Assembly (NCBI GenBank): GCA_035544015.1
Contig: DATKIP010000010.1
Location: forward strand, 6,449-70,448
DNA from: Candidatus Saccharimonadia bacterium
Lineage (GTDB): Bacteria; Patescibacteriota; Saccharimonadia; UBA4664
Length of the DNA stretch: 64,000 nucleotides
Reading direction: 5' to 3'
The position numbers were made by a program, and so were the translations under genes. The notes under the pieces are model-generated. The model worked only from the letters and a program-made list of their open reading frames with translations, searched no databases and was not told the DNA's origin. Below are positions 936-45,455 of the stretch, piece by piece. Position 1 is the first letter of the stretch. Each line of letters opens with the position of its first letter.

Positions 936-1011
936 CAGCCGCTTCCAACCCTCATATTCATGAGGCATTATACCAAACCGCCCTTACGCTTGGATACAGC
1001 CCCCGGCGCCG

Positions 1012-8143: not shown

Positions 8144-8206
8144 TACGATCAGTGTATAGCATAAGCCAGATATGGCGCAACTCGACTGTTTACGAATGCC
8201 AAGCCA

Positions 8207-9229
8207 TTAAAACGAAGCAGTACAAATATATGTCATAGTCGCCGTATACACTCCCGCCGCCTGCGCGCCACCAATATTCACGATATACGATGACGTAAAC
8301 GTATTCGCGTTCGTGGGCGCCAGCCCCGCGGCCACCACGTCACCACTCGCGAACCGATACAAATCAGGCGTGCCATACGCACCGCTAAACGTCCCACTGC
8401 CCGCACCGCTCGGATCTGCCCCCAGCGCCGGGGTCCCATTGGCCCGCAAATTCAGGCCAAACTGGCTCGTCCCGATCACACTCCCCGTCTGCGTCGCCAA
8501 GGCTGGTATCGTATTTACACCCGACGCCAACGTGGTACCCGTAACAGTGATCGCGTAGCCATTCGCCGCATTCGTCTGCGCCTGCATCACGCTCGTGCCC
8601 GACCGCGTCACCGTGGGCGAAAAATCTCCAAAATCAATCGTCGAGCCACTTACCGTCGTGCAGTTGCCCGCAATCGACGTACCGACACAAAACACCAGAA
8701 TCTCCGGCGTCACCCCGGTAAGCTGCACCGGCTGGGCGGTACTCAGCGCCACCGTGCCCGTATCGACCGCCCCCGTTGCACCGTCGGTGCCCGTGTAGGT
8801 CGTAATGCGCACAAAGTAGCTCAAGTTGGCTGTGCTCGGGTTGGTGATAGACCCAAGCGTAAAACTCATGGCCGTTCCCGCACCCACCGGCGCCGCCGTG
8901 CGCGTAATATACGGCGCTCCATTCGAGCCGTTCACCATACTAAACCCGCCCGGGCTCTGCGCCGCCAACGTCGCGCTCGTAGTCACCACGCCAGCCGGCG
9001 TCACGCACGCCCCTGTGGGCGCACCACAAATCTGAAAACCCACGGAGCCGATGCTAGCCGCCGTCGCCGTGGTCGCGTTCACGGCGTAGCTGGTGCTCAC
9101 GCCCTGGCCGCTCGATCCCACCACCACATTGCGGGGCGCCAAGCCAGCCGCCTCGGTGGCCAGTGGCATCAATCCAGTCACCCACACCCCCGCCACTATG
9201 AGTCCAGTGCGCAGTTTGCCCATGATCAA
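8207..9229 (-). CDS. secreted WxL-like surface protein (divergent C-terminal WxL-type motif)
   Basis: Signal peptide. Conserved FQICGAP, LVFCVGTS and FGLNLR-N-TP-G-D-SG motifs. C-terminus GVYTATMTYICTASF resembles G-Y-G-LTWTL of WxL domains with W replaced. 4-nt overlap (ATGA) with the upstream gene. Confidence 0.55.
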   Translation of the reverse strand: MIMGKLRTGLIVAGVWVTGLMPLATEAAGLAPRNVVVGSSGQGVSTSYAVNATTATAASIGSVGFQICGAPTGACVTPAGVVTTSATLAAQSPGGFSMVNGSNGAPYITRTAAPVGAGTAMSFTLGSITNPSTANLSYFVRITTYTGTDGATGAVDTGTVALSTAQPVQLTGVTPEILVFCVGTSIAGNCTTVSGSTIDFGDFSPTVTRSGTSVMQAQTNAANGYAITVTGTTLASGVNTIPALATQTGSVIGTSQFGLNLRANGTPALGADPSGAGSGTFSGAYGTPDLYRFASGDVVAAGLAPTNANTFTSSYIVNIGGAQAAGVYTATMTYICTASF

Positions 9230-10317
9230 AACGTTGCAGTACAGATGTACGTTAACGTCGCCGTATACACACCTGCCGCTTGATCGCCGCCCACATTCAC
9301 GACATACGAGTTGGTAAACACATTGCTCTTCGTCACCCCCGCCACACTCGCTACCGTATCGCCATTGAAAAACCGAAAGCTATCGGGCGTGTTGTAGCCG
9401 CCAAATCCCGTCGCCGTACCGAGGCCGCTCACGTCCGTGCCCACATTGGGAGTCGCGTTATCGCGCACATTGGTGCCAAATTGCGCCACCCCTGTAGCAG
9501 CACTACAACTCGGCGTGCAACCGCCGGAATTCCCGCTCTGCGTCCCCATGGCCGCAATGGTGTTCGAGCCGCTCGTGAGCGTGGTGCCGTGAAGCGTGAT
9601 GGCGTAGCCAAAACCCGCATTGGTGCTCGCGCTCATGAGGCTCGTGCCGGTGTTCGTGGCTGTGGGCGAAAACACCCCCAGGTTCACCGCCGACCCCGTG
9701 ATATTGGTGCAATCGGTCCCGCTCGTTCCCACGCAAAACACGAGGCTCTCGGGCATCACGCCGCTCGCCACGATCTGGTTGGCCGTATCCATCGCCACCG
9801 CCCCAAAGTCCGTCCCCGGATACGCCGGCGCTGCAGCCGCCGCATCAGTATAGGTTGAGATGCGCAGAAAATACTCTTTGTTGCTAGCGCTCGGATTCGT
9901 CACATTGTTGAGCACCACCGAGGCCGCACCGTTCAAGGTAGCCGCCGAATGCGTCAGCACCAGATTCGTCCCCGAGGCCGAGGCGCCCGTCTGCGACCCC
10001 ACCGACCACCCCAAGCCGAGCGACATACTCCCAAGCGTCGCCGCCCCCAGGCTGGCCCCGCTCGAGTCACCCGTACCCGCACAGGCCGTAGTCAGCACCG
10101 GCGAGTCACAAATCTCAAATTTGATCGAGCCCAACGATTGGCTCCCCGAAAGCGTAAACCCAATCGTGTACGCCACCCCCGTGGCGCCCCCGGCCGAGGT
10201 CGACACCACCGCATTGCGGCTCGTCAGCTGGCCAGCCGCCTGCGCGACAGGCGATAACCCAGCACACACCACGAGCCCCACAACCATCGCCGCTATTATT
10301 TTTTTTGTTTGTTTCAT
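9226..10317 (-). CDS. secreted WxL-like surface protein paralog
   Basis: MKQTKKIIAAMVVGLVVCAGLSPVAQA signal. FEICDSP, LVFCVGTSGTDC, FGTNVRDNATPNVGTDVSG. C-terminus GVYTATLTYICTATF. Confidence 0.55.
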   Translation of the reverse strand: MKQTKKIIAAMVVGLVVCAGLSPVAQAAGQLTSRNAVVSTSAGGATGVAYTIGFTLSGSQSLGSIKFEICDSPVLTTACAGTGDSSGASLGAATLGSMSLGLGWSVGSQTGASASGTNLVLTHSAATLNGAASVVLNNVTNPSASNKEYFLRISTYTDAAAAAPAYPGTDFGAVAMDTANQIVASGVMPESLVFCVGTSGTDCTNITGSAVNLGVFSPTATNTGTSLMSASTNAGFGYAITLHGTTLTSGSNTIAAMGTQSGNSGGCTPSCSAATGVAQFGTNVRDNATPNVGTDVSGLGTATGFGGYNTPDSFRFFNGDTVASVAGVTKSNVFTNSYVVNVGGDQAAGVYTATLTYICTATF

Positions 10318-10348
10318 AGCTTACTCACCCCCGCGGACGAGAAATCAA

Positions 10349-11452: not shown

Positions 11453-11596
11453 CAACCCGCGGTAATGAGCGTATAAAATTTCCCGCTTGGTCATGTGCTT
11501 GATAAATCCTTCATTTATTTTGCTGCGGCCACTATCCAATTCATCATAGCATAAGCACTGTTTCGAGTGTCAATGAACTCGCGTGCGGCAAGCACT

Positions 11597-12483: not shown

Positions 12484-13431
12484 ATGCCCCCGGGCAGCAC
12501 CCCACCTTTGGCGCCGTCTCCCCAGACGCCCCTCCCCAAACCGCCTCCGCCGGCCAAAAACCGGCACGCTGGCTGGCACCGACTTACCGACCGGGCCAAT
12601 GTCGTCGGCGCCGTGGTCGGCCTCTTTGCCTTTTTGCTCGCCGTCGGCGGGGTAGTGGGATTTTACTACGCCCGGCTCAACCAGCCGGCCAAAACCGAAC
12701 CCAAGAGTAATGTCACCGCCCTCAGCCCCGCTGAGCTCGCCAAACTCAGCGAGATCGGCAATAGCCTCGGCAGCTCCGGCCAAACCCTCAACATCGGCGC
12801 CGGCGCCCTCTTCCGCGGCAAGGTCGATGTGGCCGGCGACCTTTCCATCGGCGGCCGCCTCAACGCCAACGGCCCCGTCACCCTCAGCCAGCTCAATGTC
12901 ACCGGTGGCGGGGGTGTGATCGGCCTCAATGTCGGCTCCAATCTCAACGTCACCGGCACCACCGTCCTGCAGCAAACACTGAGCGTCACCGGACTCGCCA
13001 CCTTCGCCGGCGGCATCAATGTCGGCGGCAATGCCAGCTTCAACGCCATCAACGCCAGCTCACTGGCCGTGCGCAACCTCAGCATTTCCGGTCCGCTCGT
13101 CGTCGGCCACCTCACCACCCAGGGCCCCACGCCGGGCTTCGTCACCGGCCCGGCCGTCGGCTCAGGCGGCACCGCCAGCATCAGCGGCAACGACACCGCC
13201 GGCACGCTCAATTTCAACACCGGCGGCGGCCCACCCAGCGGCGTGCTCGGCACCATCACCTTCCGCGCCGCCTACACCGCCACCGTCCACGTGCTGCTCA
13301 CTCCGCTCACCGGCGCCGGCGCCGCCACGCCCGCCTATGTCACCCGCACCACCGGCGGCTTCCAGGTGCACACCGACACCGCCCCACCCAGCGGCGCCGT
13401 ATTGAGTTATGATTACTTGGTAACGCAATAG
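12484..13431 (+). CDS. membrane-anchored protein: Pro-rich N-terminus, one TM helix, beta-helix-like L-x-V-x-G repeats, conserved C-terminal beta-sandwich (H-type-lectin/tail-fibre-like?) domain
   Basis: TM VVGAVVGLFAFLLAVGGVVGFYY. Repeats LNVTGGGGVIGLNVGSNLNVTGTTVLQQTLSVTGLATFAGGINVGG. C-terminal GTITFRAAYTATVHVLLTPL...VLSYDYLVTQ. Paralog of 33709-34836. Divergent from the module-A operon. Confidence 0.6.
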   Translation: MPPGSTPPLAPSPQTPLPKPPPPAKNRHAGWHRLTDRANVVGAVVGLFAFLLAVGGVVGFYYARLNQPAKTEPKSNVTALSPAELAKLSEIGNSLGSSGQTLNIGAGALFRGKVDVAGDLSIGGRLNANGPVTLSQLNVTGGGGVIGLNVGSNLNVTGTTVLQQTLSVTGLATFAGGINVGGNASFNAINASSLAVRNLSISGPLVVGHLTTQGPTPGFVTGPAVGSGGTASISGNDTAGTLNFNTGGGPPSGVLGTITFRAAYTATVHVLLTPLTGAGAATPAYVTRTTGGFQVHTDTAPPSGAVLSYDYLVTQ

Positions 13432-14039: not shown

Positions 14040-17000
14040 TTACGGTGCCGTGTCCAAAATGCAGCCGTTCGCCGGCGTCGCATTACACCCCGTGTTCGTA
14101 AACGCCGCCCCGTGCCGCAGCCGCCGCGTCGGGTTGGCGTGGTAGTACAAATCAATCTCCGACACGTTCGTCTCCGCGCTCGTCGCCACATCCGGGAAAG
14201 TACCCGACAAGCTGTCATCGAGCACCAATACAATCAGGTAGTTAAATGCCACCCCCGTATTCGCACCACTCGAATCCAGCGGCTGCACCCCGTAGAAGTT
14301 GTTAAAAATCACCGGGTCAAACACTTGCGCCACCCCAAATTGGGTCGCGCTCGCCTGCTCGGTGTAAAACCGCACCGCCACCTTGCTTTCCGGCCCCGAC
14401 AGCGATCCCGTGAGTACCAGCTGACTCGGCGAGGTATCCACCTCGGTATTAAACAATTTCGAATAATGCCCCGTCCGCGCGATCGCGAACTGCCCCGCGC
14501 GATCATTGGCCGCCGACACGGTAGTACATACCCCGGCGCTCAACACACAACCACCCGTCACATACATCACGCCGCCAAACAACGCCGCCGCGCCATGCGC
14601 ATGCGCGCCGCTCATCGCATTCGCCGAATGTTGGGTGGTACCGAGAGTACCATTCGCATTAATGTCCACATAGAGCACCTCAGCCGTCGACCCCTCGTCT
14701 CCCACAAAATACATATAGCCGTTCGCAGCCACCGCCTGCCGCGCCACCATCCCGCGGGCCACATCGGTGGTGTAGCTCCAGCTGGCGATCGAACCATCCG
14801 CCGCCACGGTGCCAAACTGCACATCGAGCAAATTATTGGTGCCATCGGTACCACCTATCACGTACAACTTGCCGTTATACGACACGAGGCTAAAGCCCGA
14901 CCGCGCCGTCGTGAATCCTGTCGTGTTGAGCGTCCACGTCCCCAGCCCGCCAGTACTAGTATTAATAGCCGCGTAATACACATCGCTTTTCTTCGTTCCC
15001 GAGCCATTATCTCCGCCCGCCACAAACAAATAACCGCGTGCAATCGCCGCCCCAAAGCTGGTGCGATCCGTCCCAGCCGGCAGATCGGCGTTCGTCCACG
15101 AGCCGCCCAGCGTACCCGTACTATCGATCGTGGTGTACCACACCGTCGCTGTCGCCCCCGAGCTCGCACTCTTGCCACCGATCACATACAAATACCCGTT
15201 ATACGCCACTGCCTGCAACGACGACCGCACCTCGCCACTTGGCAGCGAAGTTTGCGCCGTCCAGCTGCCCGTCACCTTGCCTCCCGGATCAATGTCGGCT
15301 CGCTCGATATCACCAAGCCCCGTACTGCAAGCCCCCGTCGTGTACACTCGGCAGCCTCCGATCACATACAGCTTACCGTTGTACGCCACCGACGCGTGAT
15401 CCGCCCGCCCCGCCGTTCCGCCGACCGTCGGCAAATCCACCACATTGCCGGTACCAGTGGTAAACGCCCCCGTCTGCCCATTGCCACCATTATTGGGCTC
15501 ATACAGCTCGGTCGTGTTCGCCGTCGTCACGAACGCCGTCGCGCACTGCTTGAACGTCCCCGCCGCCAGCGTCCCAGCGCACCCGCCCATGATGTACATG
15601 TACCCACCCGTCGCCACCGCCGTCGTCTCGCCCCGCGCCGTCGAGAGCTGCCCATCCGTCTTGGTGTACGACAACGTCGTCGCCTGGCCAATGTTGGCCG
15701 CCGCCCACACATTGCCGGCGTCCGGCGCCGTCGGGCTGCCGGTCGTGGGATCAAGCTTGGTCCAGCGAATCGTCGCCTGCTGCGTCGTCGATCCCGTATT
15801 GTACCCGCCAAAACTATACAAATAGCCATTGTGCACCGCCATGCCCATCCCCCGGCTCGCAAACGCCCCTGTCAATGTCCCCAGATCGGCGATCGTCAAA
15901 TTCCCGCTGTTGTCGATCGCGATCCGCTCGGTCGCATGCGCCGTTGTCACGTACGTCCCGCCCGAAGTCGACATGCCGCCCACCACATACAGCCAGTTGC
16001 CCCACTGCCCGCCGCCGATGTCCCACCGCGCGTTGGCGAGCGTCGCGGCGGTAGCCGGATTGGACGTCAGCTTGGCCGTCGCCCACGCCCCCGGCGCATT
16101 GCTCGCGATGGTCGATTTATAGATCGTAGTCGCTACCGTCGTGCCATTGCTCAGTCCCCCCATCACGAATATCATATTGTGCCACACCGCCGCATACCCA
16201 AACGCCAGCGCTCCCGGCAAAGCATTGGCCTCCATCGTAAACGTCCCCAGCGTACCGTTCGATGCCTGCGTCGCCGACTGCACCGTCGCTTGGTACGAAT
16301 CCACATTGCCGGTGGTATACTCCACACCCCCGATCACGTAAATTTTGTTGTTGTACCCCACCACCATGTGCCCAATCCGCCCGGCCTTGTTGGTGCCGTT
16401 GCCGATCAATACATTACCCGCCGAGGCAAACGCCCCCATCGAGCCGTTCGCATTGATCTGGGCGTACTCCACCAGCGAGCTATAGGTGTTGTTGCACGTC
16501 GCGTTATTGGCCGTGCTGCAGCCCCCGATGTAATACATGTACCCGTTGAGCGCCACGCCCTTGCCGCCCATACGCGCCGTTGTTGAGTTGCTGTCAAACG
16601 GAAAACCGCTGTGGCCGCTCATGCCGTTATCGAAGCGGCCCACATTATCGAGGTTGGTTTTAAACGTTCCACCGCGCACTCCCGGCCCCGGGCTCGGGTC
16701 GTCGCCGTCGCATTGATTGGCACTAATCTCAATCGTGCAGCCGCCCACAAAATACAAATATCCGTTATAAAACGCCGACGACGGATTGCTGCGTTCCGGA
16801 GCCGTGGCACCCGTGTAGTCGTTCGATTGCTGCCACTCTCCCACGCTGCCGTCAGCATTCAGTACCGCGTATTGCGTATCCGAAATGAAATTGCTCGCCG
16901 CCCCGCACGGAAATCCCGTCACCCGGCAGCCGCCGTACACATAAATGTGGCCGCGTTCCACCGCCACCCCATGATCGCGCCGCGCCGTCGGAAACGCCGT

Positions 17001-18626
17001 CGTGCTGATCCACGAGCCCAGCGTGCCGTCGCTTTTGATCGGCGCGTACTCCACCGTACTGAGCACCGTCGGCGTACCCGTGCGGCCGCCCGTCACGTAC
17101 ACGAAGCCATTGTAAGCCGCACCCGAGAACCGGTCGCGCGCCGTCCCCAGCGCGGTCGTAGTGGTCCAGCTCGTGATGGTGCCGTCGCCGTTGATACGCG
17201 CATACTCCACACTCGTGAGCAAACTCCCGTTGCTCGTAGCGCCCTCACCACCCATCACGTACACCACGCCCTGATAATTAGCCCCTGCCATGTAGGCCCG
17301 CGCCGTACCCAGGCTAGTCGTGGTGCTCCACGTCCCCACCGAACCATCCGAGTTGATCTTGGCGTACTCCACGGTCGCGATCGGGTTGTTGCTGGTATTT
17401 TCCCCGCCCACCGCATACAAATAGCCGTTGTAACCAAACGCCACCAGCCCCTGCCGCGCCGTGTTCAGGCTCTGGTTGGTGCTCGTACCCGTCCAGGTCA
17501 GCGCCCCGGCCGCCCCAATCGAAGCGCTGTACACTACGTTGGTCGGCGTAGTGGCCGTACCGCTGTCGGCGCCGCCCCCAATGAGATACACAAAATTGTT
17601 GTACGCCACGAGCGCCCCCGCGTACCGTGCCACCGTGATGTTGGTGCCGGTGGTCCACGCCACCACCGATCCACCGCTCAGCGGCGCCCGGCCGATTTGG
17701 TCGGCCACCGAGGTGAGGTCGATGTTGTCGTCCACGCTTCCCAACACAAAGTCGGCCGTACTCCGCAACAAAAAGGTCGGATCAATCGAAAGCGGATAAT
17801 TTGCTTTGGCTAAGCCACGAGCCCGCACCACCAAATCCTTCCCGCTCAGCCCAAACCGCGCACTCACCGCACTGCGCTGGCCCGTTTCGCGCACCACCGG
17901 TGCCGGAATCGCAAACATCAAGTAGGTTTTGGCCCCCGCCACGCGCGCCTTATCGAGCATCTCGCGGTCATTGTCGCTGCCGTAGCTCACATTGCCATAC
18001 AGCTCCGGACTGGCCGTATAAAATCCCACGCTCCCGTCATCCTCCAGCCGCGCCTCCACCGTATCCGGAATATCCAAACGATAATGAAATTCCATCGCGT
18101 CCGCCTTCGGCGCCGAGGTCAGCACGATGTCTTCTTTCAGCCCATTGCCCTTGGGCGTAAACATCATCTGCCCCGCCGCATCTTTGAGCGGATACGTCAC
18201 CTGCCCATTACTGCTCCGCCCCTCCATGAGCGCCACCTGCGGCACAAATTTCACCGACACGTCGTTGACATTGTCGTGCACCTCCACCCCTTGCGCCGGA
18301 TTGTCAGGCAACGTAGCCGAATACAGCTGCGTGTCTTTTTTGCCCCCGGCCCCCACCGCCATTTGGAGCTTATCTTTCGGATCAGACCACGCGTCGGCTT
18401 GACCCTCGGCATTAAACACGCTCGCGTGTTTATCTTTGTCATACCGCAATTTGCTCATGAGCGCCGGGCTCGGCCGCTCCGCCACCGCTGCTGCCGCCGG
18501 CGTCATGCGATAGCGCTCATTCGTTACCAGCCAATCCGCCACCGGCGCCACCATACCCGCCAGCAACACCCCCATCACCACCGCATGCACCGGCCGGCGC
18601 ACATCGAGATTGATACCCAGCTTCAC
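14040..18626 (-). CDS. giant secreted multi-Kelch-repeat (beta-propeller) protein, 1528 aa, no anchor
   Basis: At least 20 repeats of the Kelch signature (YNGYLYAVGG, YQGVVYVMGG, YNGFVYVTGG, AYNGKLYVIGG, ...TVEYA.I..DG..G.W). GTG start at 18624-18626, 1 nt after the upstream stop (18628-18630). An alternative ATG (MGVLLAGMVAPVA) lies about 51 nt in. Confidence 0.75.
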   Translation of the reverse strand: MKLGINLDVRRPVHAVVMGVLLAGMVAPVADWLVTNERYRMTPAAAAVAERPSPALMSKLRYDKDKHASVFNAEGQADAWSDPKDKLQMAVGAGGKKDTQLYSATLPDNPAQGVEVHDNVNDVSVKFVPQVALMEGRSSNGQVTYPLKDAAGQMMFTPKGNGLKEDIVLTSAPKADAMEFHYRLDIPDTVEARLEDDGSVGFYTASPELYGNVSYGSDNDREMLDKARVAGAKTYLMFAIPAPVVRETGQRSAVSARFGLSGKDLVVRARGLAKANYPLSIDPTFLLRSTADFVLGSVDDNIDLTSVADQIGRAPLSGGSVVAWTTGTNITVARYAGALVAYNNFVYLIGGGADSGTATTPTNVVYSASIGAAGALTWTGTSTNQSLNTARQGLVAFGYNGYLYAVGGENTSNNPIATVEYAKINSDGSVGTWSTTTSLGTARAYMAGANYQGVVYVMGGEGATSNGSLLTSVEYARINGDGTITSWTTTTALGTARDRFSGAAYNGFVYVTGGRTGTPTVLSTVEYAPIKSDGTLGSWISTTAFPTARRDHGVAVERGHIYVYGGCRVTGFPCGAASNFISDTQYAVLNADGSVGEWQQSNDYTGATAPERSNPSSAFYNGYLYFVGGCTIEISANQCDGDDPSPGPGVRGGTFKTNLDNVGRFDNGMSGHSGFPFDSNSTTARMGGKGVALNGYMYYIGGCSTANNATCNNTYSSLVEYAQINANGSMGAFASAGNVLIGNGTNKAGRIGHMVVGYNNKIYVIGGVEYTTGNVDSYQATVQSATQASNGTLGTFTMEANALPGALAFGYAAVWHNMIFVMGGLSNGTTVATTIYKSTIASNAPGAWATAKLTSNPATAATLANARWDIGGGQWGNWLYVVGGMSTSGGTYVTTAHATERIAIDNSGNLTIADLGTLTGAFASRGMGMAVHNGYLYSFGGYNTGSTTQQATIRWTKLDPTTGSPTAPDAGNVWAAANIGQATTLSYTKTDGQLSTARGETTAVATGGYMYIMGGCAGTLAAGTFKQCATAFVTTANTTELYEPNNGGNGQTGAFTTGTGNVVDLPTVGGTAGRADHASVAYNGKLYVIGGCRVYTTGACSTGLGDIERADIDPGGKVTGSWTAQTSLPSGEVRSSLQAVAYNGYLYVIGGKSASSGATATVWYTTIDSTGTLGGSWTNADLPAGTDRTSFGAAIARGYLFVAGGDNGSGTKKSDVYYAAINTSTGGLGTWTLNTTGFTTARSGFSLVSYNGKLYVIGGTDGTNNLLDVQFGTVAADGSIASWSYTTDVARGMVARQAVAANGYMYFVGDEGSTAEVLYVDINANGTLGTTQHSANAMSGAHAHGAAALFGGVMYVTGGCVLSAGVCTTVSAANDRAGQFAIARTGHYSKLFNTEVDTSPSQLVLTGSLSGPESKVAVRFYTEQASATQFGVAQVFDPVIFNNFYGVQPLDSSGANTGVAFNYLIVLVLDDSLSGTFPDVATSAETNVSEIDLYYHANPTRRLRHGAAFTNTGCNATPANGCILDTAP

Positions 18627-18627
18627 C

Positions 18628-21600
18628 CTACCACCTCGTCAGATAAGGTAATGTGATAGTCCCCAACCGCACATCACCTGTGGTGGCCGCCGCCGTCAGG
18701 TGAATCCGGACGATCATATTCGAACCCTGAGTGTACGTACCCGTGATCGCCGGCGTCGTCACGCTGCGCGCCGTCCAAGTGGTACTCACCGTCAGCGCCG
18801 ACGCGTTGTAGTTGGTAGCCACCGTGCCCGCTGTATCGGTAATCGTCACCGACATCGAGCTACCCGCGCTGCCATACGTCCAAAACGTCGGCGAACCCGT
18901 CCAGGCGCTGAAATCATCGGGCACCGGCACCGTCGCCACGATGTCGTAATCTTGAGCCGTACCTTGGCTCGTCACCCATTTGTAGTACCCAAAGCGCTGT
19001 GTCGATTCGTATGCCGCCGTCATCGTCCCCGTATTATTCGAACCATCCGCATCCAGCACCGCTCCCGCAAATTCCCCCGTCAGCCGCACCGCCGAGGCAT
19101 GCCGCGCCGTTCCCGCAAACGTCACCTCCTTGGTAGTCGCATCAAACGTCGCGTTATTGGTGCCGTCTCCCACCCGAATCGTCCCCGCAAACTCACTCGA
19201 CCCGCTCACGTAGAGCGCCGCCGTAGCATTCGCTCCCCCGCTGCCGAGCGTCGGCGTCCCCGTACCAATGCGCACCTTGAAGTTGGCCGTATCCACCTGC
19301 ATCGCATAGCTCGACGACGTCCCGCCCAGATAGGTAGTCCCCGCCGCCGTCACGATGCCGTTGGCCTGCACCCCAAACACATCCGCCGCATTCGCCTGCA
19401 GCCTCAGCAAGTAGTTCGCGCTCACCGTGCTCTTATTAATGAAAATACTCGGGTTCGCACTCGCATCCGCCTGCGCCGTCCCCGGCGCCAGCTGAATGTA
19501 CCCGTTCGCATAATACGCCGCGTACGTCGTGCCGCACGTAGCCGCCAACGTCGAGCACAGCTGGTAGGTGCCGGCCGTACCAGCCGCAAATTGATAAATA
19601 ATATTGCCCGTCGGGTTGGCAAACTGCAAGCTCGTGGTATTCGTACCATTCGACACCGTCAGCGCGCTCGACGTGTTGCCCTGCAAACTCAGCGTGCCCC
19701 CCGCACGACCGATATTCAGCGTGGATGCGTTCGTCGTCCCAATGCTCACCGCCACCGCCGCATTAGCGTCAATGGTGCCCGCCGTATTAAACTGCAAGCT
19801 CGACAGCCCACTCACCGCACCCGCACTCGTAATGCCCCCGGCGTTGTTGTTAATACCGCTGAAAATGCTCGCACCCGCATTCGCCGTCAGCGCCGCCGTG
19901 TTCACCGTGGCCCCCGAGCTAAACGTCGCCGCGTTCGTCACCGTCAGGCTGCTGGCCGTGAGCAAGCCACCCGTCCCTACCGTGCCCGTGAAGCTCGCGG
20001 TGCTCGAAATTGTTTGTCCGTTAATCGTACTCGCCGTCGTCACCGCCCCCGCTGCGTTCACCGAGAATTTGCTCGTTTCCGTCCCGCTCGGACCGCTCCA
20101 CAGATCGATCAAATTGCCGCCCACCGAGGCATTCGTCAGCTTGGCATAAATCAGCGCCTCACCCGCCCCAGCGTTCGCCGCCGCCGTCACCTTGAGCGTG
20201 CTGGCCGTGCCGGTGCCGTTGGCGAGCACAAGCACATTCGAGGCCAGCGAGCCGTTGTTGCTAAATTGATACAGAAACTGTCCCGCCGTCAGATTGGCGC
20301 TCGAGGTCTCGTTGGCCGTCCCCTTGCGCAAATAGCCCGTGCTGCCCGCCCCGCACGAATTCAAGTCCGAGGTACAAATCGTGTACGTCGTGTTGGTCGT
20401 CGGGCTCGCAAACTGGTACGTGCCGGCACCCGCGATGGTCGCAAAATTCACGCTCACCGTATTGGCACCGTTGGTCGCGGTAATCTTGGTACTATTGCCG
20501 CCTTGCAGGGTCAACGTCTGCGTCGTCGATCCCACCGTCATAGCCGCGCTCGGCGTGATCGTGTTGCTCTGCAGCGTCATGCCCTGGGTGATCACCTGGC
20601 TACCGACCGTATCCACCGCAAACTGCGACACCCCACTCGCATTCTGCACATCAAAGGCCGTCGCCGAATCCGTCCCGTTGGCCTTCACGACCACCGATCC
20701 CGTCGTGCCGCTGCCGCCGGTCGCTCCCGCCTGCAGCACCAGGTTGCCGCCGTTGTTGGCTCCCGTGCCGCTCGTGCCGGCCTTAATCGTCAAACTGTTG
20801 CCGGCCCCGCTCGCCGCCGCGGCCACCGACAGCGTCCGCGCCCCGCCCGACGTGAACGTCACATTGGCCGCCGCCAGCCCCACTGTGGTCGCCGCCAGCA
20901 CCACCCCGCCCCCGGCCGCACTGCCGCCCTGCACCGTGGTGATGTTGCCAGCGTTGGCCGCCGTCGAGCCAATCGTCACCACCTGCGCCCCCGTCGCGCT
21001 CGTAGTGTCGGCAATGTGCACGCTTGAGGCCGCCGTCTGCACCCCCACCGCGCCCACATTCACCGCCGTGCCGTTCAGGTTCAAATTGGCCGCCGCGCTC
21101 ACGCCCAAATCCCCCGCCGCCGTGCTCCATGTGGCCGCCGCCGCCGAGGTGATCGTGAGCGCGCCCGAGGTCGTCGTGAGCACCGCCGCCGCATTACTCG
21201 TGATACTCACAGCCCCACCCGACTGCGTAAACGCCCCCTGCACCGTAACGCTCTTGCCACTTGCCACCGTCACATTTTGGTTCAAATTAATCCCGGCGGT
21301 CGCGTTCGTCGTACCGATATTCAGCGTCGTCGTGCCGCTCGGCGTGTCCAGCAGCGGCGTCAGCAGCGATGTATTCGCCCGCCCCGTCCCGCTAATCTGA
21401 TAATTCCCCGTCTGCGTCGTACCCGTGCGGTTCAAAATATAACCCGTACCCGTCGTGCCGTCGCAGTTGCCCGAGTCTGCACACAGCGTCCCGCTCGTAT
21501 CCGGCAGCACCAAGCTCCGCGCACCCGTGGGAGTCGCCGAGGTCAGTGTCAGCTGATTCGTGTTGGTAGCGTCATTAAAAATGAAGCTACTGCTCGCCGC

Positions 21601-24600
21601 CAGCCCCTGCAGCGACACCGCCACCCCACTCGCCGTCGCCGCGTTGCGCCCGATGTTCACGTTCAGCGCGTTCGTTGCCCCGATGTTCACGTTGCCCGCA
21701 AACCCCGAGCCGTTCTTCGACCCAGCGTCGATCGTCACGTTCCCCGAGCTCGCATTCGCCGCCGTCCCGTTGCCCGACCGCAGCGTCACCCCCGCCGAGG
21801 AGCCGCTCGCCACATCCGCCGTCGCAAACAGCGGCGCCACCAAGCTCACCCCCGCCACACCCGTGTTCGAAATATTGAAATTCGAGCTCGCCTGCTGGCT
21901 GGTTTGGTTAATGATGTACGAACCCGCCGACCCTAGCAAAAACCCGCAGTTGGCCGAATTTTGAATACACAGCGTACCGCCCTCATCCGGCAACACCAGC
22001 GCTCGGGTATTCGTCGGCGTCGCAAATGTCAGCGCCGAGGTAAACCCGCCGCCCGTCCCCGTGATCTTCGAGCCGCCGAGTCCCGCCGCCCCCTGTAGCG
22101 TAAAGTTCTGCGTCATGCGGCCGATCGCCACCGAAGTCGCCGTGGCCGAACCAATGCTCAAAGCCCCCGCGCTCGGCGTATCGAGGCTAATCGTCTTCAC
22201 CGCCGTGCTGCCCGTGATCGTCCCCGCAGCGGTCAAGTCGCCACTCCCAGTCACACTGAAGTTGCTGGCCGTGATCAAGTTCGTCCCAAACGTCCCACTA
22301 AAATTAATCCCATTCGTCACGTTGGCACCCTGGATTTTGAGCGCATCCGTCACCGTGATCTGATTGCCCGTCGCCGTATCGTTGTTGGCCAGGTTCAAGA
22401 TCGACGCCACCGTGCTATCGGCCGGCGAGCCACCGTTGGCCGCCACCGCCAGGTTCGCCACCGTTTCGGTGTTGCCCGCCACCGTCGCCGCCTGCACAAA
22501 TTCCAGGTCGAGCCCCGCGATCAAATTCGCGCCGCTCACCGCCGTCGTCGCCTGCGCGTTCGTCGGATTGAGCGAAATCGCACTCCACGCCGTATTGGCC
22601 GCCGTATTATTCGCCGACGTCACCTTAAAAGCCGAGCCAGTCGTCAGCGCATTGGCCGTAATCGTGTGCGCGTCACCCGTCCCCGTAAACGCCTGCGCAA
22701 ACGTGCCGGCGCCGCTCGCCAAGCTCAAATTTTTGCCCGCCGCCACCGTCGTATTCTGGTTGAGGTTAATCGCCGTCGCGTTCGTCGTACCCACCGCCAG
22801 AGCCACGGCCGTCGCCGTATCGAGCAGTGGCGTTTGCAGCGACGTATCGAGCCGGCCCGTCCCCGAAATCCAGAAATTGGCCGAAGTCTGCTGAGCCGCA
22901 TTTTGGTTCAAAATAGCACTCGCGGCCGTCGCCGTACAGCCACTCGCCGTACAAACATTCGTCCCGCCAATTTTGTACGCCGAACCCGAAGCAATATTGG
23001 CGTCTCCGTTCACATCCAGCTTGTAGCTCGGGCTCAGCCCAATACCCACGTTTCCACCCGACAGCGCCGTGATCAGATCGGTCGACCCCGACCGCACTGC
23101 AATATTGCCGCCCGTTGTCTTCAAGTAGCCAGTGGTAGTGGTGCCCTCCCACGAGAAGCCCAAAATGTTGTTCTCGTCGGGGCTAAACAACCCCACCGCC
23201 GGCTGTACTGGCGTCGCCACATAGCTCGAGCCGTTCCACCCCCGCCGGTCAAACACCGAGATCGCCCGCGAATTCGTCGCCGCTCCCGACGGCAACCCAA
23301 ACGCCAGCACCTGCCCCGAACCACCCGGATCATACAACGGAATATTAATCTTCGTATCCACCCCCGACCCCACCGGCGTCGTAAACGTGTCCACGTACGC
23401 ACTGCTCGAACCGCTCAGCCGCAGCGCCCCCTTCACCTCCAGGCCTTCGTGCGCCAGCGTCGGCGCCGTACTCCCGCCCAAGGCAATGCCCACCCGGCTG
23501 TTGGTCGTGTCAACCGTGAACACGTTCGCATTGGTGCCACCCGCCGGCGTCTTGACGCTAAACGCCGCCGTACTCGTAGCCGTCGGCTGCACCACCGTCA
23601 CGCCACCGAGCGACACCGCTCCCGTACCCGTCCCAAACGTCCCGCTACCGCTTTGCAAAAAGTTCCCGCTCGCCTGCGCGTAACCCGTAATCCCGCTCAA
23701 GCCCCCCGCACTCGACACATCAAAGTTGGTCGAATCAATCGCAAGCGGCGCCGCCCCGCCCCCCAACGTAATCGCACCTGTAGCCGCGCCAATGTTTAGA
23801 TTCACCGCCCCCGTCGCGGTCAAACCACCCGTACCCTGAATCAATCCCGTCCCCGAATTCACGCCCACGCCCACCACCGCCCCCGCCTGGCTCACGCTGA
23901 AGTTGCTCGCCGTGATCAAATTCGTCCCAAATGTCCCACTCAAATTAATCCCGTTCGTCACATTCGCACCGTTAATTTTCAGCGCGTCCGTCACCGCAAT
24001 CTGATTCCCCGTCGCCGTGTCATTATTGGCGAGGTTCAAGATCGAACCCACCACGCTATCGGCCGGCGAGCCGCTGTTGGCCGCCACCGCCAAATTCGCT
24101 ACCGTTTCAGTGTTGCCCGCCACCGTCGCGCTCTGCGCAAATTGCACATCGAGCCCGGCGATCGTCCCCCCGCTCACCGCCGTCGTACCCTGGGCATTGG
24201 TCACCGCCAGCGCGACGGCGCTCCACGGCGTGTTGGCCGCCGAATTATTGCTCGATGTCACCCGCAATGCCGCTCCCGTCGTCAGCGAGTTCGCGGTCAA
24301 AGAATCCGCATCCGTGCCCTGCGCATTCGACGACCGCGTCACCGCCCCCGACTGGGCCACCGCAAACCGGCTCGTACCACCCTGCTGCAAATCCACCAAA
24401 TTCCCACTCGGACTACCCGCCTGATTATTCACCTTCAGCAGCGCCGCCCCCGCCCCCGGGTTCGCATTGGCCACAAGGTTGAGCGTCGAGCCCGTGCCTT
24501 GGTTGGTCAGATCAAGCACCCGGTTGCCGCTCGTGCTCGTGTTGGTCAACGCCAGCAGCGCCCCCGTCACGCTCGCACTCGAGGTATCCTGCGCGTTCTT

Positions 24601-25395
24601 GAGCAAATAGCCGGTCGCGCTCGCTGCCTGATACGTCGCGCTGCACGTGGTCGCCACCGTCGTACACAGCGTACCGCCCGCATCCGGAAAACTAATCGCA
24701 TTCGTACCCGTCGGCGTCACAAAACTCACCGTGGTCGTGTTCGCCCCATTCGTCGCCGTAAACACCGAGCTCGCATTGCCCTGAATCGTAAACGACGTAC
24801 TCGTTCGCCCCACCGTCACGCTCGTCGCCGTCCCAGTGCCAATCGACAATGCCGACGCCGTCGCCGTATCCACCAACGGCGCCTGCAGCGAGGTCGCCGC
24901 CTGCACGCTACCCGTCACGTTGAGCGAACCACTCTGCGCCGAGGCCGGGTTCAACTGCGCAAACGCCGAGCTGTCCAGCCCATCCAAAAGATCCGAGTTG
25001 AACGCGTACGGGCTAGCCGTAAATTGAATCCGCGGGCTCATCTCGCCATCAGTATTGAAATTGATTCCGAGGTAAATATTGTCGGTGTTAAAATCTACCG
25101 ATCCCGGCAAGCCCGTCACCGAGCCCAAATTGGTTTGGAAAATCCCATCAGTCACGGTCAAGGTTTTGCTTTCGGTCCAGATCGCCGACCCGCCGGAGCT
25201 CACCGAGTACAACTTAAACACAAACCCGTAGCTCCCGTCGGTCACATTCGTACCGTTCGAATTCACCACCTTGCCCTGAAAGTTGACCTGCTTGTTGATG
25301 CCAGTAGCGGCCACCGCCGGCCCGGCCCACGACGCCATCACCACGCTCACCAGTATCCCAAAAACCCCAGTCGCCGTCAGCGCCCTGGTTACCAT
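18628..25395 (-). CDS. giant secreted fibrous surface protein (about 2250 aa), paralogous N-terminal module to the 1928-6145 protein, internally duplicated, no anchor
   Basis: Signal MVTRALTATGVFGILVSVVMASWAGPAVA then mature ATGINKQVNFQGKVVNSNGTNVTDGSYGFVFKLYS. The long segment NTETVANLAVAAN...TNLITASNFSV occurs twice. ATG at 25393-25395; the ORF-track start 25473 is an upstream extension. Confidence 0.8.
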   Translation of the reverse strand: MVTRALTATGVFGILVSVVMASWAGPAVAATGINKQVNFQGKVVNSNGTNVTDGSYGFVFKLYSVSSGGSAIWTESKTLTVTDGIFQTNLGSVTGLPGSVDFNTDNIYLGINFNTDGEMSPRIQFTASPYAFNSDLLDGLDSSAFAQLNPASAQSGSLNVTGSVQAATSLQAPLVDTATASALSIGTGTATSVTVGRTSTSFTIQGNASSVFTATNGANTTTVSFVTPTGTNAISFPDAGGTLCTTVATTCSATYQAASATGYLLKNAQDTSSASVTGALLALTNTSTSGNRVLDLTNQGTGSTLNLVANANPGAGAALLKVNNQAGSPSGNLVDLQQGGTSRFAVAQSGAVTRSSNAQGTDADSLTANSLTTGAALRVTSSNNSAANTPWSAVALAVTNAQGTTAVSGGTIAGLDVQFAQSATVAGNTETVANLAVAANSGSPADSVVGSILNLANNDTATGNQIAVTDALKINGANVTNGINLSGTFGTNLITASNFSVSQAGAVVGVGVNSGTGLIQGTGGLTATGAVNLNIGAATGAITLGGGAAPLAIDSTNFDVSSAGGLSGITGYAQASGNFLQSGSGTFGTGTGAVSLGGVTVVQPTATSTAAFSVKTPAGGTNANVFTVDTTNSRVGIALGGSTAPTLAHEGLEVKGALRLSGSSSAYVDTFTTPVGSGVDTKINIPLYDPGGSGQVLAFGLPSGAATNSRAISVFDRRGWNGSSYVATPVQPAVGLFSPDENNILGFSWEGTTTTGYLKTTGGNIAVRSGSTDLITALSGGNVGIGLSPSYKLDVNGDANIASGSAYKIGGTNVCTASGCTATAASAILNQNAAQQTSANFWISGTGRLDTSLQTPLLDTATAVALAVGTTNATAINLNQNTTVAAGKNLSLASGAGTFAQAFTGTGDAHTITANALTTGSAFKVTSANNTAANTAWSAISLNPTNAQATTAVSGANLIAGLDLEFVQAATVAGNTETVANLAVAANGGSPADSTVASILNLANNDTATGNQITVTDALKIQGANVTNGINFSGTFGTNLITASNFSVTGSGDLTAAGTITGSTAVKTISLDTPSAGALSIGSATATSVAIGRMTQNFTLQGAAGLGGSKITGTGGGFTSALTFATPTNTRALVLPDEGGTLCIQNSANCGFLLGSAGSYIINQTSQQASSNFNISNTGVAGVSLVAPLFATADVASGSSAGVTLRSGNGTAANASSGNVTIDAGSKNGSGFAGNVNIGATNALNVNIGRNAATASGVAVSLQGLAASSSFIFNDATNTNQLTLTSATPTGARSLVLPDTSGTLCADSGNCDGTTGTGYILNRTGTTQTGNYQISGTGRANTSLLTPLLDTPSGTTTLNIGTTNATAGINLNQNVTVASGKSVTVQGAFTQSGGAVSITSNAAAVLTTTSGALTITSAAAATWSTAAGDLGVSAAANLNLNGTAVNVGAVGVQTAASSVHIADTTSATGAQVVTIGSTAANAGNITTVQGGSAAGGGVVLAATTVGLAAANVTFTSGGARTLSVAAAASGAGNSLTIKAGTSGTGANNGGNLVLQAGATGGSGTTGSVVVKANGTDSATAFDVQNASGVSQFAVDTVGSQVITQGMTLQSNTITPSAAMTVGSTTQTLTLQGGNSTKITATNGANTVSVNFATIAGAGTYQFASPTTNTTYTICTSDLNSCGAGSTGYLRKGTANETSSANLTAGQFLYQFSNNGSLASNVLVLANGTGTASTLKVTAAANAGAGEALIYAKLTNASVGGNLIDLWSGPSGTETSKFSVNAAGAVTTASTINGQTISSTASFTGTVGTGGLLTASSLTVTNAATFSSGATVNTAALTANAGASIFSGINNNAGGITSAGAVSGLSSLQFNTAGTIDANAAVAVSIGTTNASTLNIGRAGGTLSLQGNTSSALTVSNGTNTTSLQFANPTGNIIYQFAAGTAGTYQLCSTLAATCGTTYAAYYANGYIQLAPGTAQADASANPSIFINKSTVSANYLLRLQANAADVFGVQANGIVTAAGTTYLGGTSSSYAMQVDTANFKVRIGTGTPTLGSGGANATAALYVSGSSEFAGTIRVGDGTNNATFDATTKEVTFAGTARHASAVRLTGEFAGAVLDADGSNNTGTMTAAYESTQRFGYYKWVTSQGTAQDYDIVATVPVPDDFSAWTGSPTFWTYGSAGSSMSVTITDTAGTVATNYNASALTVSTTWTARSVTTPAITGTYTQGSNMIVRIHLTAAATTGDVRLGTITLPYLTRW
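22250..22650. repeat. intragenic direct repeat, copy 2 (about 85-90% identical to 23891-24295)
   Basis: gtcacactgaagttgctggccgtgatcaagttcgtccc... aligns with ctcacgctgaagttgctcgccgtgatcaaattcgtccc... 1641 nt away. Antisense ORFs 22364-22894 and 24017-24424 translate to near-identical peptides. Confidence 0.7.
23891..24295. repeat. intragenic direct repeat, copy 1
   Basis: See copy 2; the offset of 1641 nt equals 547 codons, matching the duplicated protein segment. Confidence 0.7.
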
Positions 25396-25483
25396 GCGTC
25401 GGCTGTTTCCACCCGTTACCCGAAATCTTCGACTCGTTGCGAGACGACTGGGTACGCGCACACCTTCACACAATTACTCCCTA

Positions 25484-25512: not shown

Positions 25513-25634
25513 GCATTATCAGCCCCAAAATGCCTCTGGTGACGACACCCGCTCTCCCCCTCGCTCCGCACTCTCCGAAACTATATTCCCGGGGACATGA
25601 ATTTTAACCCAAGCTCACGCACCAGATCATCAAA

Positions 25635-26579
25635 TTATCGGCGGTGACGCGGCCGCACCCACAACCACCACGCCAACCCGCCCACCGCCGCGAGCGCCAG
25701 CAACCCCACCATCCACACCACTATGGCTCCCGCATACCAAAAACCGGTCACCAACGTCTTGGTAGCCTCCGTGCCGTCGTACCGGTATGTAGTTGTCAGC
25801 GAATACCGTCCCGGCAACCACGCCACCTTCGTGCCCAGCAAACCGACCCGATAGCGCCGAAAACTTTCGGGCAAAATTACTCCCGACGCCTCGTTGATAG
25901 CCGCTCGCTCCACCACCCGCCCCACCGGGTCCTTCACCTCCACCACCCCGCGCGGCACCACATGCACGTTGCCGCCGTTTTGAAACCGCAGCTCCACCCG
26001 ACCCGGCAACCGCACCCACCCCGCCGCGCTCGTCTGCGACGCCAAGCGCAAATCAACCTGCTGGCCACCATCCTTCACCGCCAACACCAAGCTCGAAAGT
26101 ACCTGCTTCACTCCCACCTGCTGACTCGCCGGCTGCCCGGCGTCATCCACCGCCGTCGCCAACACCGCCCCATAATGGCCGCCCGGCGCTAGCGTAGCGC
26201 GGTTATCAATCGTTACCAACACCTCCATCGTCGCCCCTGCCGACACAAACACCGCATTCTTCTCGAGCACCATCCACGACGCCAACCCATACTTGTGCAC
26301 GAGCTCGCTCGCCGGCGTGCCCAAAAACGCCACCCCACCTTGCTCGTCGAGCGCCCCAAAGTCCACCACGCTCAACCGAAAATTCTGATCGGTCGGGTTG
26401 CGATTCGTTAACTTCAGCGCATACTGCACACTCGGCTTATCCGCCGGCACCACCACCTGCGCAAACGCCGGTGATACCACAAGACCCGTCCCGCCCGTCG
26501 CCGCGCTCGCCCATCCTGGCCAAAAACCGCTCACCAAAGCAAAAATAATCCCAGCGCACCACGCTCTCCCCCGCCGCAT
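25635..26579 (-). CDS. DUF916/DUF3324-like (CscA-like) surface protein with C-terminal TM anchor
   Basis: Start at MRRGRAWCAGIIFALVSGFWPGWASA signal (ATG 26577-26579). FQNGGNVHVVPRG. C-terminal GFWYAGAIVVWMVGLLALAAVGGLAWWLWVRPRHRR. Confidence 0.55.
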   Translation of the reverse strand: MRRGRAWCAGIIFALVSGFWPGWASAATGGTGLVVSPAFAQVVVPADKPSVQYALKLTNRNPTDQNFRLSVVDFGALDEQGGVAFLGTPASELVHKYGLASWMVLEKNAVFVSAGATMEVLVTIDNRATLAPGGHYGAVLATAVDDAGQPASQQVGVKQVLSSLVLAVKDGGQQVDLRLASQTSAAGWVRLPGRVELRFQNGGNVHVVPRGVVEVKDPVGRVVERAAINEASGVILPESFRRYRVGLLGTKVAWLPGRYSLTTTYRYDGTEATKTLVTGFWYAGAIVVWMVGLLALAAVGGLAWWLWVRPRHRR

Positions 26580-26587
26580 CTCGATAC

Positions 26588-27652: not shown

Positions 27653-27665
27653 CTCAAGACCCAGG

Positions 27666-30110: not shown

Positions 30111-30122
30111 CCCAGTCCCTGG

Positions 30123-32019: not shown

Positions 32020-32020
32020 C

Positions 32021-45397: not shown

Positions 45398-45455
45398 TAT
45401 ACGTCTCTGACGAACCAACCGTTACATTGCCAAATGAACCAAAAAGCTGTCCAGC

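Follow-up and report, generated by a model that had tools for sequence, protein, structure and literature searches.

The analysed window, a 64,000-nucleotide stretch of DNA from a Candidatus Saccharimonadia MAG, encodes a large protein with three Kelch propellers directly downstream of a giant tail-fibre-like gene. We tentatively propose, at a probability of roughly 0.45, that the Kelch protein is anchored in the membrane and binds the C-terminal domain of the fibre, as its dock or assembly platform. Saccharibacteria, like other CPR bacteria, spend their lives attached to bacterial hosts; apart from type IV pili and the recently described Pam pili, little is known of how they recognize and hold these hosts. 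At ~11.4 kb, the two ORFs are among the largest coding investments of a small genome, and throughout the class the pair is retained at a constant place in the chromosome. If both proteins belong to one apparatus, they would be a testable candidate for host contact and would show how a secreted fibre is retained with neither sortase nor outer membrane; otherwise, the Kelch proteins would still be a large family of lectin-like surface proteins awaiting characterisation.

The gene pair and its junction

14040..18626, minus strand: triple-Kelch gene, 1528 aa, GTG start, TAA stop at 14042-14040
18624..18637, minus strand: coupling junction, with Shine-Dalgarno-like GAGGTGG (18637-18631), fibre TAG (18630-18628), 1 nt and Kelch GTG (18626-18624)
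18628..25473, minus strand: giant tail-fibre-like gene, longest ORF 2281 aa from a TTG, TAG stop at 18630-18628
25580..25607, minus strand: weak promoter-like site, TTAAAA-16-TATAGT, in the gap 5' of the fibre gene

The triple-Kelch gene corresponds to NCBI VMT30_00200, annotated as a hypothetical protein, and a homologue search returned a database entry 100% identical to its product together with hundreds of full-length homologues. A single base (18627) separates the fibre TAG from the Kelch GTG. This spacing had been claimed in the preliminary description and is borne out by the coordinates, by the Shine-Dalgarno sequence, whose GAGGTG core lies 5 nt ahead of the GTG, and by the start codon itself, which is the earliest past the in-frame stop. 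It is also the sole start located 5' of Kelch residues 6-15 (NLDVRRPVHA), which align with the (R)IDVRKPVHA motif retained in homologues, and hence a start further downstream, which would break the coupling, is unlikely. The preliminary description went on to speak of stoichiometric co-production, which does not follow, as termination-reinitiation would tie the expression of both genes together without fixing a 1:1 ratio. Fusion of the two products by readthrough or frameshift was considered and rejected, since the frames differ in the window and the gaps of relatives vary from -7 to +4; the Kelch protein's own membrane helix likewise counters it. In a promoter and terminator scan, site counts were no higher than in shuffled sequence, so that the TTAAAA-16-TATAGT site serves as a pointer only.

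Conservation of the pair

Among 75 Kelch loci, 46 carry a fibre with the same ~190-aa C-terminal domain directly 5' of the Kelch gene; a tandem Kelch copy lies between the two in 3 more and one small ORF (~200 aa) in another 5, which brings all arrangements with an upstream fibre to 54/75. Where fibre and Kelch gene are direct neighbours (46 pairs), the spacing between the fibre stop and the earliest available Kelch start is -7 to +4 nt in 19 pairs and no more than 100 nt in 41. The reverse check, whether orthologous fibres elsewhere are followed by a Kelch gene, supports the pairing as well: in an independent metagenome scan that took the fibre C-terminal domain as its query, a Kelch-family gene lies directly 3' in 15 of 22 informative loci. 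Seven of these 22 fibres have no downstream Kelch gene, about a quarter of the Kelch genes have no such fibre upstream, and neither gene thus strictly requires the other, at least in cis. In some genomes the Kelch gene is present twice or in tandem.

In distant Saccharibacteria (~30% identity), the pair is still located between ileS and parA, at loci with no detectable pam genes nearby, and this placement points to a long vertical co-inheritance. The distances of fibre C-terminal domains track those of the Kelch-protein domains with r 0.67-0.74 in a mirror-tree analysis uncorrected for phylogeny, where the Kelch domains track one another at r 0.70-0.80 and the membrane-proximal N-terminal domain follows the fibre C-terminal domain best. 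Such co-divergence is a weak indication of contact, as it cannot separate interaction from shared phylogeny.

Architecture of the triple-Kelch protein

18525..18626, minus strand: basic tail and hydrophobic helix VVMGVLLAGMVAPVADWLV, residues 1-34, with K2, R10 and R11; probable signal-anchor
17763..18494, minus strand: N-terminal beta-supersandwich domain, residues ~45-288, specific to the triple-Kelch family
16587..17678, minus strand: Kelch propeller 1, residues 317-680, strand fragment 317-329 and blades 1-6 (blade HMM, PDB profile, periodicity)
15417..16568, minus strand: Kelch propeller 2, residues 687-1070, blades 7-12, the most divergent propeller
14466..15404, minus strand: Kelch propeller 3, residues 1075-1387, blades 13-18 (blade HMM, periodicity, Pfam)
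14127..14465, minus strand: C-terminal beta-sandwich (jelly-roll) domain, residues 1388-1500
14043..14126, minus strand: conserved C-terminal tail, residues 1501-1528, low model confidence, YHxxPxxRLRHGxxF...LDTxP

Members of the Kelch-repeat beta-propeller superfamily are recognized by repeats whose ~45-60 residues include a GG doublet and conserved aromatics and which score above the Pfam gathering thresholds. The protein belongs to this superfamily by its blades and by its matches to PF24681 (119.5 bits, cut-off 50; best stretch residues 1138-1359), Kelch_1 (PF01344; 105.6 bits, cut-off 20.1) and Kelch_6 (64.9 bits, cut-off 25.3). A blade HMM built from the protein itself finds exactly 18 significant blades within residues 336-1387, as does the consensus of 25 homologues, and in addition a short strand fragment at residues 317-329, possibly the propeller-closing strand. 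At least 20 blades in three to four propellers had been claimed, with Kelch HMM counting proposed as a check; the multi-propeller nature of the protein stands, while the count falls to 18. The blades are most likely arranged 3 x 6, given that blade-blade similarity peaks at lag 12, that blades 6, 12 and 18 are alike, and that the family profile matches six-bladed PDB Kelch propellers at ~1e-33 over ~280 positions. Six blades contain paired cysteines (GGC-x6-11-C), which together with the hydrophobic N-terminal segment mark the protein as extracytoplasmic.

This segment had been described as a signal-type N-terminus lacking an anchor. It is hydrophobic as stated, but its features favour an anchor: 110 of the 118 full-length homologues contain one strongly hydrophobic 19-mer (median start, residue 40) between a basic tail, whose net charge has a median of +8, and a conserved NERYRL motif, and no conserved AXA site was found at the N-terminus across the homologues. 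In the window's own protein the tail is short (15 residues). Judged by hydropathy and charge, the N-terminus is probably a signal-anchor that stays uncleaved, and this speaks against placing the protein distally, at a fibre tip.

Fold comparison assigns the N-terminal domain to the galactose-mutarotase-like supersandwiches typical of carbohydrate-active enzymes, whereas the C-terminal domain resembles discoidin/CBM32-type jelly rolls; neither has an informative family in Pfam, NCBIfam or PHROGs. A BFVD fold search of the C-terminal domain against viral models gave no match at E<=1e-3 and generic jelly rolls only. Conservation is even along the protein, with a mean pairwise identity of 0.34-0.45 per domain among homologues and no hypervariable region; the C-terminal tail is the most conserved segment (0.51), and its R1502 is invariant.

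Clustered at 50% identity, proteins with the N-terminal domain (E<=1e-10) form about 490 clusters, almost all from Saccharibacteria, and the domain occupies the same position in proteins of the same size. The family architecture comprises an N-terminal helix, the supersandwich, 18 blades, the jelly-roll and the RLRHG tail in ~1400-1800 aa, and full-length alignments at 30-60% identity place the window protein within it. Accordingly, to call such proteins rare in bacteria, as the preliminary description did, is misleading; by their sequences, triple-Kelch proteins are a large, conserved, lineage-specific family. We found neither an experiment on this family nor a description of it in literature on Kelch proteins or propellers with Saccharibacteria/CPR, and the Southlakia Tn-seq supplementary tables do not contain the word "Kelch". 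The existing database labels, "hypothetical" and, for several homologues at JGI, "N-acetylneuraminic acid mutarotase", are uninformative or misleading, the latter arising from generic Kelch similarity. Identity with NanM, a single periplasmic six-bladed Kelch propeller of ~390 aa that matches a curated family model, was rejected, as the 1528-aa protein contains three propellers and extra domains and gave no NCBIfam match at E<=0.01.

The fibre

18631..19185, minus strand: fibre C-terminal domain, residues ~2097-2281, ~190 aa, conserved in the alignment
24949..25395, minus strand: fibre signal peptide and conserved N-terminal domain, common to a second fibre at 1928-6145

An alternative start of the fibre gene, ATG 25395, gives a typical Sec signal peptide ending AVA/ATGINKQ. 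Residues 55-174 share 33% identity with residues 42-199 of the second fibre, which itself has a GTA_spike_fiber domain and a weak match to the N-terminus of Bdellovibrio MAT. The fibre has no family in Pfam, NCBIfam or PHROG and hence no recognisable wall-binding domain, and neither a C-terminal LPXTG motif nor a transmembrane helix is seen in its translation. Fibre homologues located 5' of Kelch genes vary in length between 847 and 2844 aa, with recognisable conservation mainly at their ends. The C-terminal domain carries the motifs ..AEYAGAVLDA..GTMTS..YYKWT..AQxYDVVVQVPIPSDW..RIGNITLxYxSK[YFW]; its profile has no PDB or Pfam relative by sequence, NCBIfam and PHROGs hold no informative family for it either, and a word-indexed homologue search with it returned only 9 short fragments, which lack gene context.

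Proposed role and alternatives

The gene structure, the coupling junction, the number of blades, the domain folds, the size of the family, the conserved synteny and the co-divergence are results of the analysis. Membrane anchoring we infer from the N-terminal sequence features; the contact between Kelch protein and fibre and the role in anchoring or assembly are likewise inferred. Both proteins would be made from the same mRNA, ribosomes that finish the fibre reinitiating at the GTG just downstream. The Kelch protein would be tethered to the cytoplasmic membrane by its uncleaved signal-anchor and exposed at the cell surface, presenting, outward from the membrane, the carbohydrate-binding-type supersandwich, three six-bladed propellers, the jelly-roll and the conserved flexible tail. 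The fibre, presumably secreted by its Sec signal peptide and lacking a recognisable anchor of its own, would be bound at its C-terminal domain as this domain exits the Sec channel, whereupon the Kelch protein would nucleate fibre assembly, hold the fibre on the cell, or both, leaving host or substrate contact to the long variable shaft. The even conservation of the Kelch protein together with the variable fibre length agrees with a constant base that carries a variable element for reach. What counts against a dock is fibre polarity: the C-terminus of phage and MAT fibres is the distal tip, and were this also true here, the C-terminal domain would be far from a membrane-anchored Kelch protein.

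A more specific version of the docking model is speculative and, in our estimate, unlikely as a whole: in environmental Saccharibacteria, the triple-Kelch platform would capture the C-terminal domains of a trimeric fibre at the Sec channel, nucleate trimerisation and serve as base, and one propeller might serve each chain. If true, it would be a previously undescribed way to build and anchor long host-contact fibres on a single-membrane cell without a sortase-type motif, in the form of a two-gene module inherited vertically next to parAB and working alongside Pam pili.

We consider it similarly improbable that the Kelch protein is an independent surface lectin or adhesin for a host, substrate or own-wall ligand, co-expressed with the fibre and not binding it. 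All three non-Kelch folds resemble sugar-binding modules and would suit such a lectin equally well, the supersandwich and the CBM32-like jelly roll among them; Kelch genes that lack an upstream fibre, or that occur in two or tandem copies, also agree with an independent function, as does the make-up of the window, an island of cell-surface genes that includes two Pam pilus operons. Yet a lectin leaves unexplained why one and the same fibre C-terminal domain is encoded next to the Kelch gene throughout the class, often with stop and start codons that overlap or abut, and the hypervariable region expected of a host-specific adhesin is not present.

The preliminary description favoured a tip or adaptor function. 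An adaptor is reasonable given the recurrent coupled pairing, whereas a tip, for which the signal peptide would have to be cleaved and the released Kelch protein ride the distal fibre end as an adhesin or adaptor of the phage gp38 type, is disfavoured by the signal-anchor features and seems decidedly unlikely. The gene order does mirror that of phage tail fibres followed by their tip or assembly protein, fibre relatives carry phage-fibre-like domains, and what adjoins the Kelch gene is the coding region of the fibre's C-terminal domain, which in phage fibres forms the tip. Long basic tails (median 40 residues, +8) with no conserved AXA are, however, atypical of cleaved signal peptides, and the Kelch protein is related to known tip or assembly proteins neither in sequence nor in fold.

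Least probable is an enzyme whose supersandwich and propellers act on sugars (mutarotase-, oxidase- or lyase-like), modifying the Ser/Thr/Asn-rich fibre or processing host-derived glycans: the JGI label, the Kelch propellers of NanM and galactose oxidase and the invariant charged residues K164, E165, D220 and D282 of the N-terminal domain speak for it, but searches of NCBIfam and Pfam gave no enzyme family and no catalytic motif came to light, the label is accounted for as above, and tandem arrays of three propellers are not known from such enzymes.

Comparison with known systems

The Kelch domains of KLHL/Keap1 proteins and the SAKe6 designs have the same repeat signature and length as the window protein. 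In contrast to KLHL/Keap1, three propellers are here combined in one extracytoplasmic bacterial polypeptide that lacks a BTB/BACK domain; on either side of the propellers lies a domain specific to the family, and a membrane helix is present at the N-terminus. Galactose oxidase, a seven-bladed copper enzyme, joins a CBM32 to a Kelch propeller, and muskelin a discoidin domain; each has just one propeller, their domains are ordered differently, and the protein described here matches no enzyme family. In phages, a tail-fibre gene is followed by an assembly or tip-adhesin gene (T4 gp37-gp38, Mu/P2/lambda Tfa), and as in our pair a long fibre gene precedes its partner and the adjoining fibre domain is C-terminal. 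Tfa and gp38 partners are, however, small and soluble, with neither Kelch repeats nor a membrane helix, and a PHROGs search gave no Tfa/gp38 homology, its two weak matches being of Kelch type and of unknown function.

The Pam system occurs in the same organisms and, in this lineage, at the same locus, the fibre-Kelch pair being located between two Pam-pilus operons within the window. Flanking clusters were also considered as WxL/Csc-type loci, which was rejected because NCBIfam and Troman et al. 2026 (bioRxiv 10.64898/2026.03.03.709456) identify them as Pam pilus operons; the neighbouring ORF 9226..10317, for instance, scores 141 bits on CPR_Pam_pilin_C (cut-off 55). [quoted passage not shown] 2026). 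Pam components (PamA/B/E/T pilins, PamC/D chaperones, PamR) are recognized by a Pam NCBIfam match or as an Ig-like donor-strand pilin, a two-domain chaperone with C-terminal TM or an FnIII pair with C-terminal TM. The Kelch and fibre proteins have no Pam NCBIfam match, the Kelch protein differs in its domain folds and is not among the described components, and its anchor is N-terminal whereas Pam anchors are C-terminal.

Beta-propellers on surface filaments are also known from PilY1/PilX2 of type IV pili (PMC12206443) and from EsrA of Actinomycetota (bioRxiv 10.64898/2026.09.08.750141). As in our pair, these combine a surface filament with a propeller thought to do the recognition, in a Saccharibacteria-host setting. 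Their propellers are single, of RCC1 or WD40 type, and fused to a pilin or an Ig-repeat stalk, whereas the protein described here carries three Kelch propellers in a separate polypeptide predicted to be tethered to the membrane.

The Kelch gene and its junction with the fibre gene

The Kelch protein is encoded directly 3' of a giant fibre gene, on the same strand.

14040..18626 (-), Kelch gene, 1528 aa, start GTG 18626-18624
18628..25473 (-), fibre ORF upstream of the Kelch gene, 2281 aa at longest, stop TAG 18630-18628

In a database search the 1528-aa product was 100% identical to VMT30_00200, annotated as hypothetical in a MAG of Candidatus Saccharimonadia. A single base lies between the fibre TAG (18630-18628) and the Kelch GTG (18626-18624). 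The GAGGTG core of GAGGTGG (18637-18631) lies 5 nt ahead of this GTG, which is the earliest start past the in-frame stop. The motif (R)IDVRKPVHA, conserved among homologues, aligns with residues 6-15 (NLDVRRPVHA). Since the later in-frame GTG/ATG codons (codons 9 to 18) would truncate this motif or fall past it, the coupling of the two genes claimed in the preliminary description is real.

GC content in the window is high (~0.61) and GC skew is strong, being negative on the plus strand throughout (-0.1 to -0.34 per 2 kb). Credible genes lie nearly all on the minus strand, with many long spurious ORFs opposite them, and no tRNA genes are present in the window.

Domain architecture of the Kelch protein

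Pfam Kelch families score far over their cut-offs in the 1528-aa protein. Searched with a blade HMM derived from its own sequence, the protein shows exactly 18 significant blades at residues 336-1387, and a short strand fragment at residues 317-329 that may close a propeller; 18 'NGYLYxxGG' units likewise appear in the consensus of 25 full-length homologues. We infer three six-bladed propellers from these sequences, since there are 18 blades, the family profile aligns over ~280 positions with solved six-bladed Kelch propellers (E ~1e-33), blade-to-blade similarity peaks at lag 12, with blades 6, 12 and 18 mutually alike, and the linkers after blades 6 and 12 are longer. The count of 20 or more blades in 3-4 propellers proposed earlier is thus replaced by 18, read as 3 x 6. 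Six blades carry a GGC-x6-11-C cysteine pair, which fits an extracytoplasmic location.

Neither terminus of the protein matches a Pfam or NCBIfam family. The last 28 residues (1501-1528, window 14043-14126), with the pattern YHxxPxxRLRHGxxF...C...C.LDTxP, have low model confidence yet are the most conserved segment of the family. This tail may serve as a short binding motif; with no TM helix after it, it does not resemble known C-terminal sorting signals.

Family size and distribution

Full-length relatives recovered with the whole protein number in the hundreds and measure 1400-1800 aa. The N-domain, the family-specific domain ahead of the propellers, alone matched 490 clusters at E<=1e-10 in a search of 1.84 billion representatives, nearly all in 1400-1900-aa proteins and at residues ~50-400, and is thus specific to the triple-Kelch architecture. 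A scan of species-representative genomes gave at least 476 relatives. With such numbers the protein is not rare within its lineage. The best 77 of these loci come almost all from Saccharibacteria/Saccharimonadia MAGs; the few with other bin names may be binning errors. Some genomes hold two Kelch-family copies, which in several MAGs lie on different contigs. The word 'Kelch' is absent from those supplementary tables that were searched for Southlakia epibionticum, a cultivated oral strain.

Genomic context and fibre proteins

[quoted passage not shown] Judged by NCBIfam matches and gene architecture, two stretches of the window look like paralogous pam operons, and a giant fibre gene comes after each of them.

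6237-12373 and 25635-32983 (-), candidate pam operons, with secreted pilin-like proteins ending ..YTATxTYxxTxxF
9226..10317 (-), one of these, a Pam pilus pilin (CPR_Pam_pilin_C, 141 bits, cut-off 55, NCBIfam)
7169..8143, 25635..26714 and 26588..27712 (-), PamC/D-like proteins, signal peptide and C-terminal TM
6237..7169 and 32021..32983 (-), PKD/Big proteins that could be PamR-like, C-terminal TM
1928-6145 (-), second fibre, 1405 aa, followed by parA (168..968) without a Kelch gene

Other ORFs give PamT-like matches. The Kelch gene follows the fibre at 18628-25473 only. The 1405-aa fibre has in common with the 2281-aa one its signal peptide and N-terminal domain (AAGINKQINFQG...) and differs from it in the C-terminal region. 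Because it carries a GTA_spike_fiber domain (63 bits) and a weak N-terminal match to a Bdellovibrio MAT fibre, the window's fibres look like phage-type trimeric fibres. By eye, the 2281-aa fibre shows a tail-fibre-like 'neck' motif (..NSDLLDGLDSSAFAQL..) past the N-terminal domain, internal duplications (e.g. residues ~430-540 and 930-1040) and a module recurring every ~300-400 residues that ends in a short disulfide loop, ..PDxxGTLC-x5-8-C...

Plus-strand genes and a low-GC island (~41000-45500, GC 0.39-0.49 against ~0.60), were also recorded.

12484-13431 and 33709-34836 (+), paralogous pair, N-terminal TM helix, repetitive Gly/Thr/Asn-rich region, conserved C-termini ..YDYLVTQ and ..FDYWVVQ
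13451-14026 (+), small cohesin-domain protein (PF00963, 25 bits, cut-off 24.1), N-terminal TM helix
41192..42196, SIR2-like protein
42186..44075, HerA/DUF87 helicase
44123..45418, Schlafen AlbA_2 protein

The product of 12484..13431 has a weak bactofilin-like match, and in 13 related loci a homologue of the pair lies in convergent orientation to the Kelch gene. In the window the cohesin gene converges with the Kelch gene and ends 13 nt from its stop codon. The low-GC island resembles an anti-phage defence island of the SIR2-HerA type, apparently gained by horizontal transfer.

Conservation of the fibre-Kelch pair

The pairing was examined from both sides. With an HMM of the last ~190 residues of the fibre, this C-terminal domain was found to end the gene directly upstream of Kelch in 46 of 75 loci. 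A tandem second Kelch-family gene lies between the two in 3 more (L014, L038, L065) and a ~200-aa membrane-protein ORF in another 5 (L004-L007, L040), giving 54/75 loci with a fibre upstream. Fibre genes followed by two consecutive Kelch-family genes, a tandem duplication, are seen at L014, L038, L065 and L081. The inserted ORF of L004, L005, L006, L007 and L040 is conserved within one sub-lineage, fills the ~600 nt that directly precede the Kelch gene, and encodes an N-terminal TM helix and ..DDILMFGQAG..Y..WAKLL...

A metagenome scan seeded solely with the C-terminal domain alignment yielded 25 fibre loci, 22 of them with at least 1 kb downstream. That orthologous fibre genes are followed directly by a Kelch-family gene, a check raised in the preliminary description, holds for 15 of these 22 and fails for 7: downstream of the fibre come parA/parB in two, another giant ORF in one and no recognisable Kelch gene in the remaining four.

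Of the 46 direct pairs, 19 have the first possible Kelch start -7 to +4 nt from the fibre stop, and in 41 the gap is no more than 100 nt. At locus L001 this first start agrees with the database protein P0005 (1555 aa), which matches in contig and length. Close relatives have the order pam cluster, fibre, Kelch, convergent gene, second pam cluster, (second fibre), parA; in distant Saccharibacteria it is ileS, fibre, Kelch, parA. Complete upstream fibres span 847-2844 aa, and those of distant loci share with the window fibre mainly the N-terminal region and the C-terminal domain.

Loci that differ more in the fibre C-terminal domain also differ more in the Kelch domains (pairwise distances, r 0.67-0.74), the N-domain giving the strongest correlation; these values come close to the r 0.70-0.80 that the Kelch domains give among themselves. 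This co-divergence shows co-inheritance of fibre and Kelch and hints only weakly at contact between them.

N-terminus of the Kelch protein

In most homologues an N-terminal stretch of 20-60 residues, rich in Arg, Lys and Trp, leads into a single helix (..VHAVVIGVILAGILAPV..), after which comes the conserved NERYRL. A 19-residue window of mean Kyte-Doolittle hydropathy >=1.6 is present in 110 of 118 full-length homologues, with a median start at residue 40 and a median net charge of +8 upstream, and no conserved AXA site was seen after the helix. As far as sequence statistics go, such a pattern marks a probable uncleaved signal-anchor whose N-terminus lies in the cytoplasm, at odds with the earlier view that the protein has no anchor. 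The fibre stop codon limits the ORF in the window, which leaves its protein with a short basic tail of 15 residues.

Discussion

Altogether, the best-supported reading is that the Kelch protein is a putative membrane-anchored partner of the fibre: it would dock the fibre's conserved C-terminal domain, offer that domain a platform for assembly, or do both. We favour this because the two genes are conserved as a pair and their stop and start codons are often coupled, because they have co-diverged, because Kelch appears membrane-anchored and no anchor is recognisable in the secreted fibre, and because Kelch is evenly conserved in contrast to the highly variable fibre shaft. This reading is weakened by a pairing that is not universal, and by the fact that the C-terminus of phage-type fibres is normally the distal end.

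The Kelch protein might instead be an independent lectin, as all three non-Kelch folds resemble sugar-binding modules. A place at the fibre tip, the role first proposed, would require cleavage of the N-terminal helix and is unlikely given the long basic tails of the family. For an enzymatic role nothing specific speaks.

No description of the triple-Kelch architecture, its family or its conserved pairing with giant fibres was found in the searchable literature. Kelch propellers and gene pairs of a fibre plus its partner are both already known kinds.
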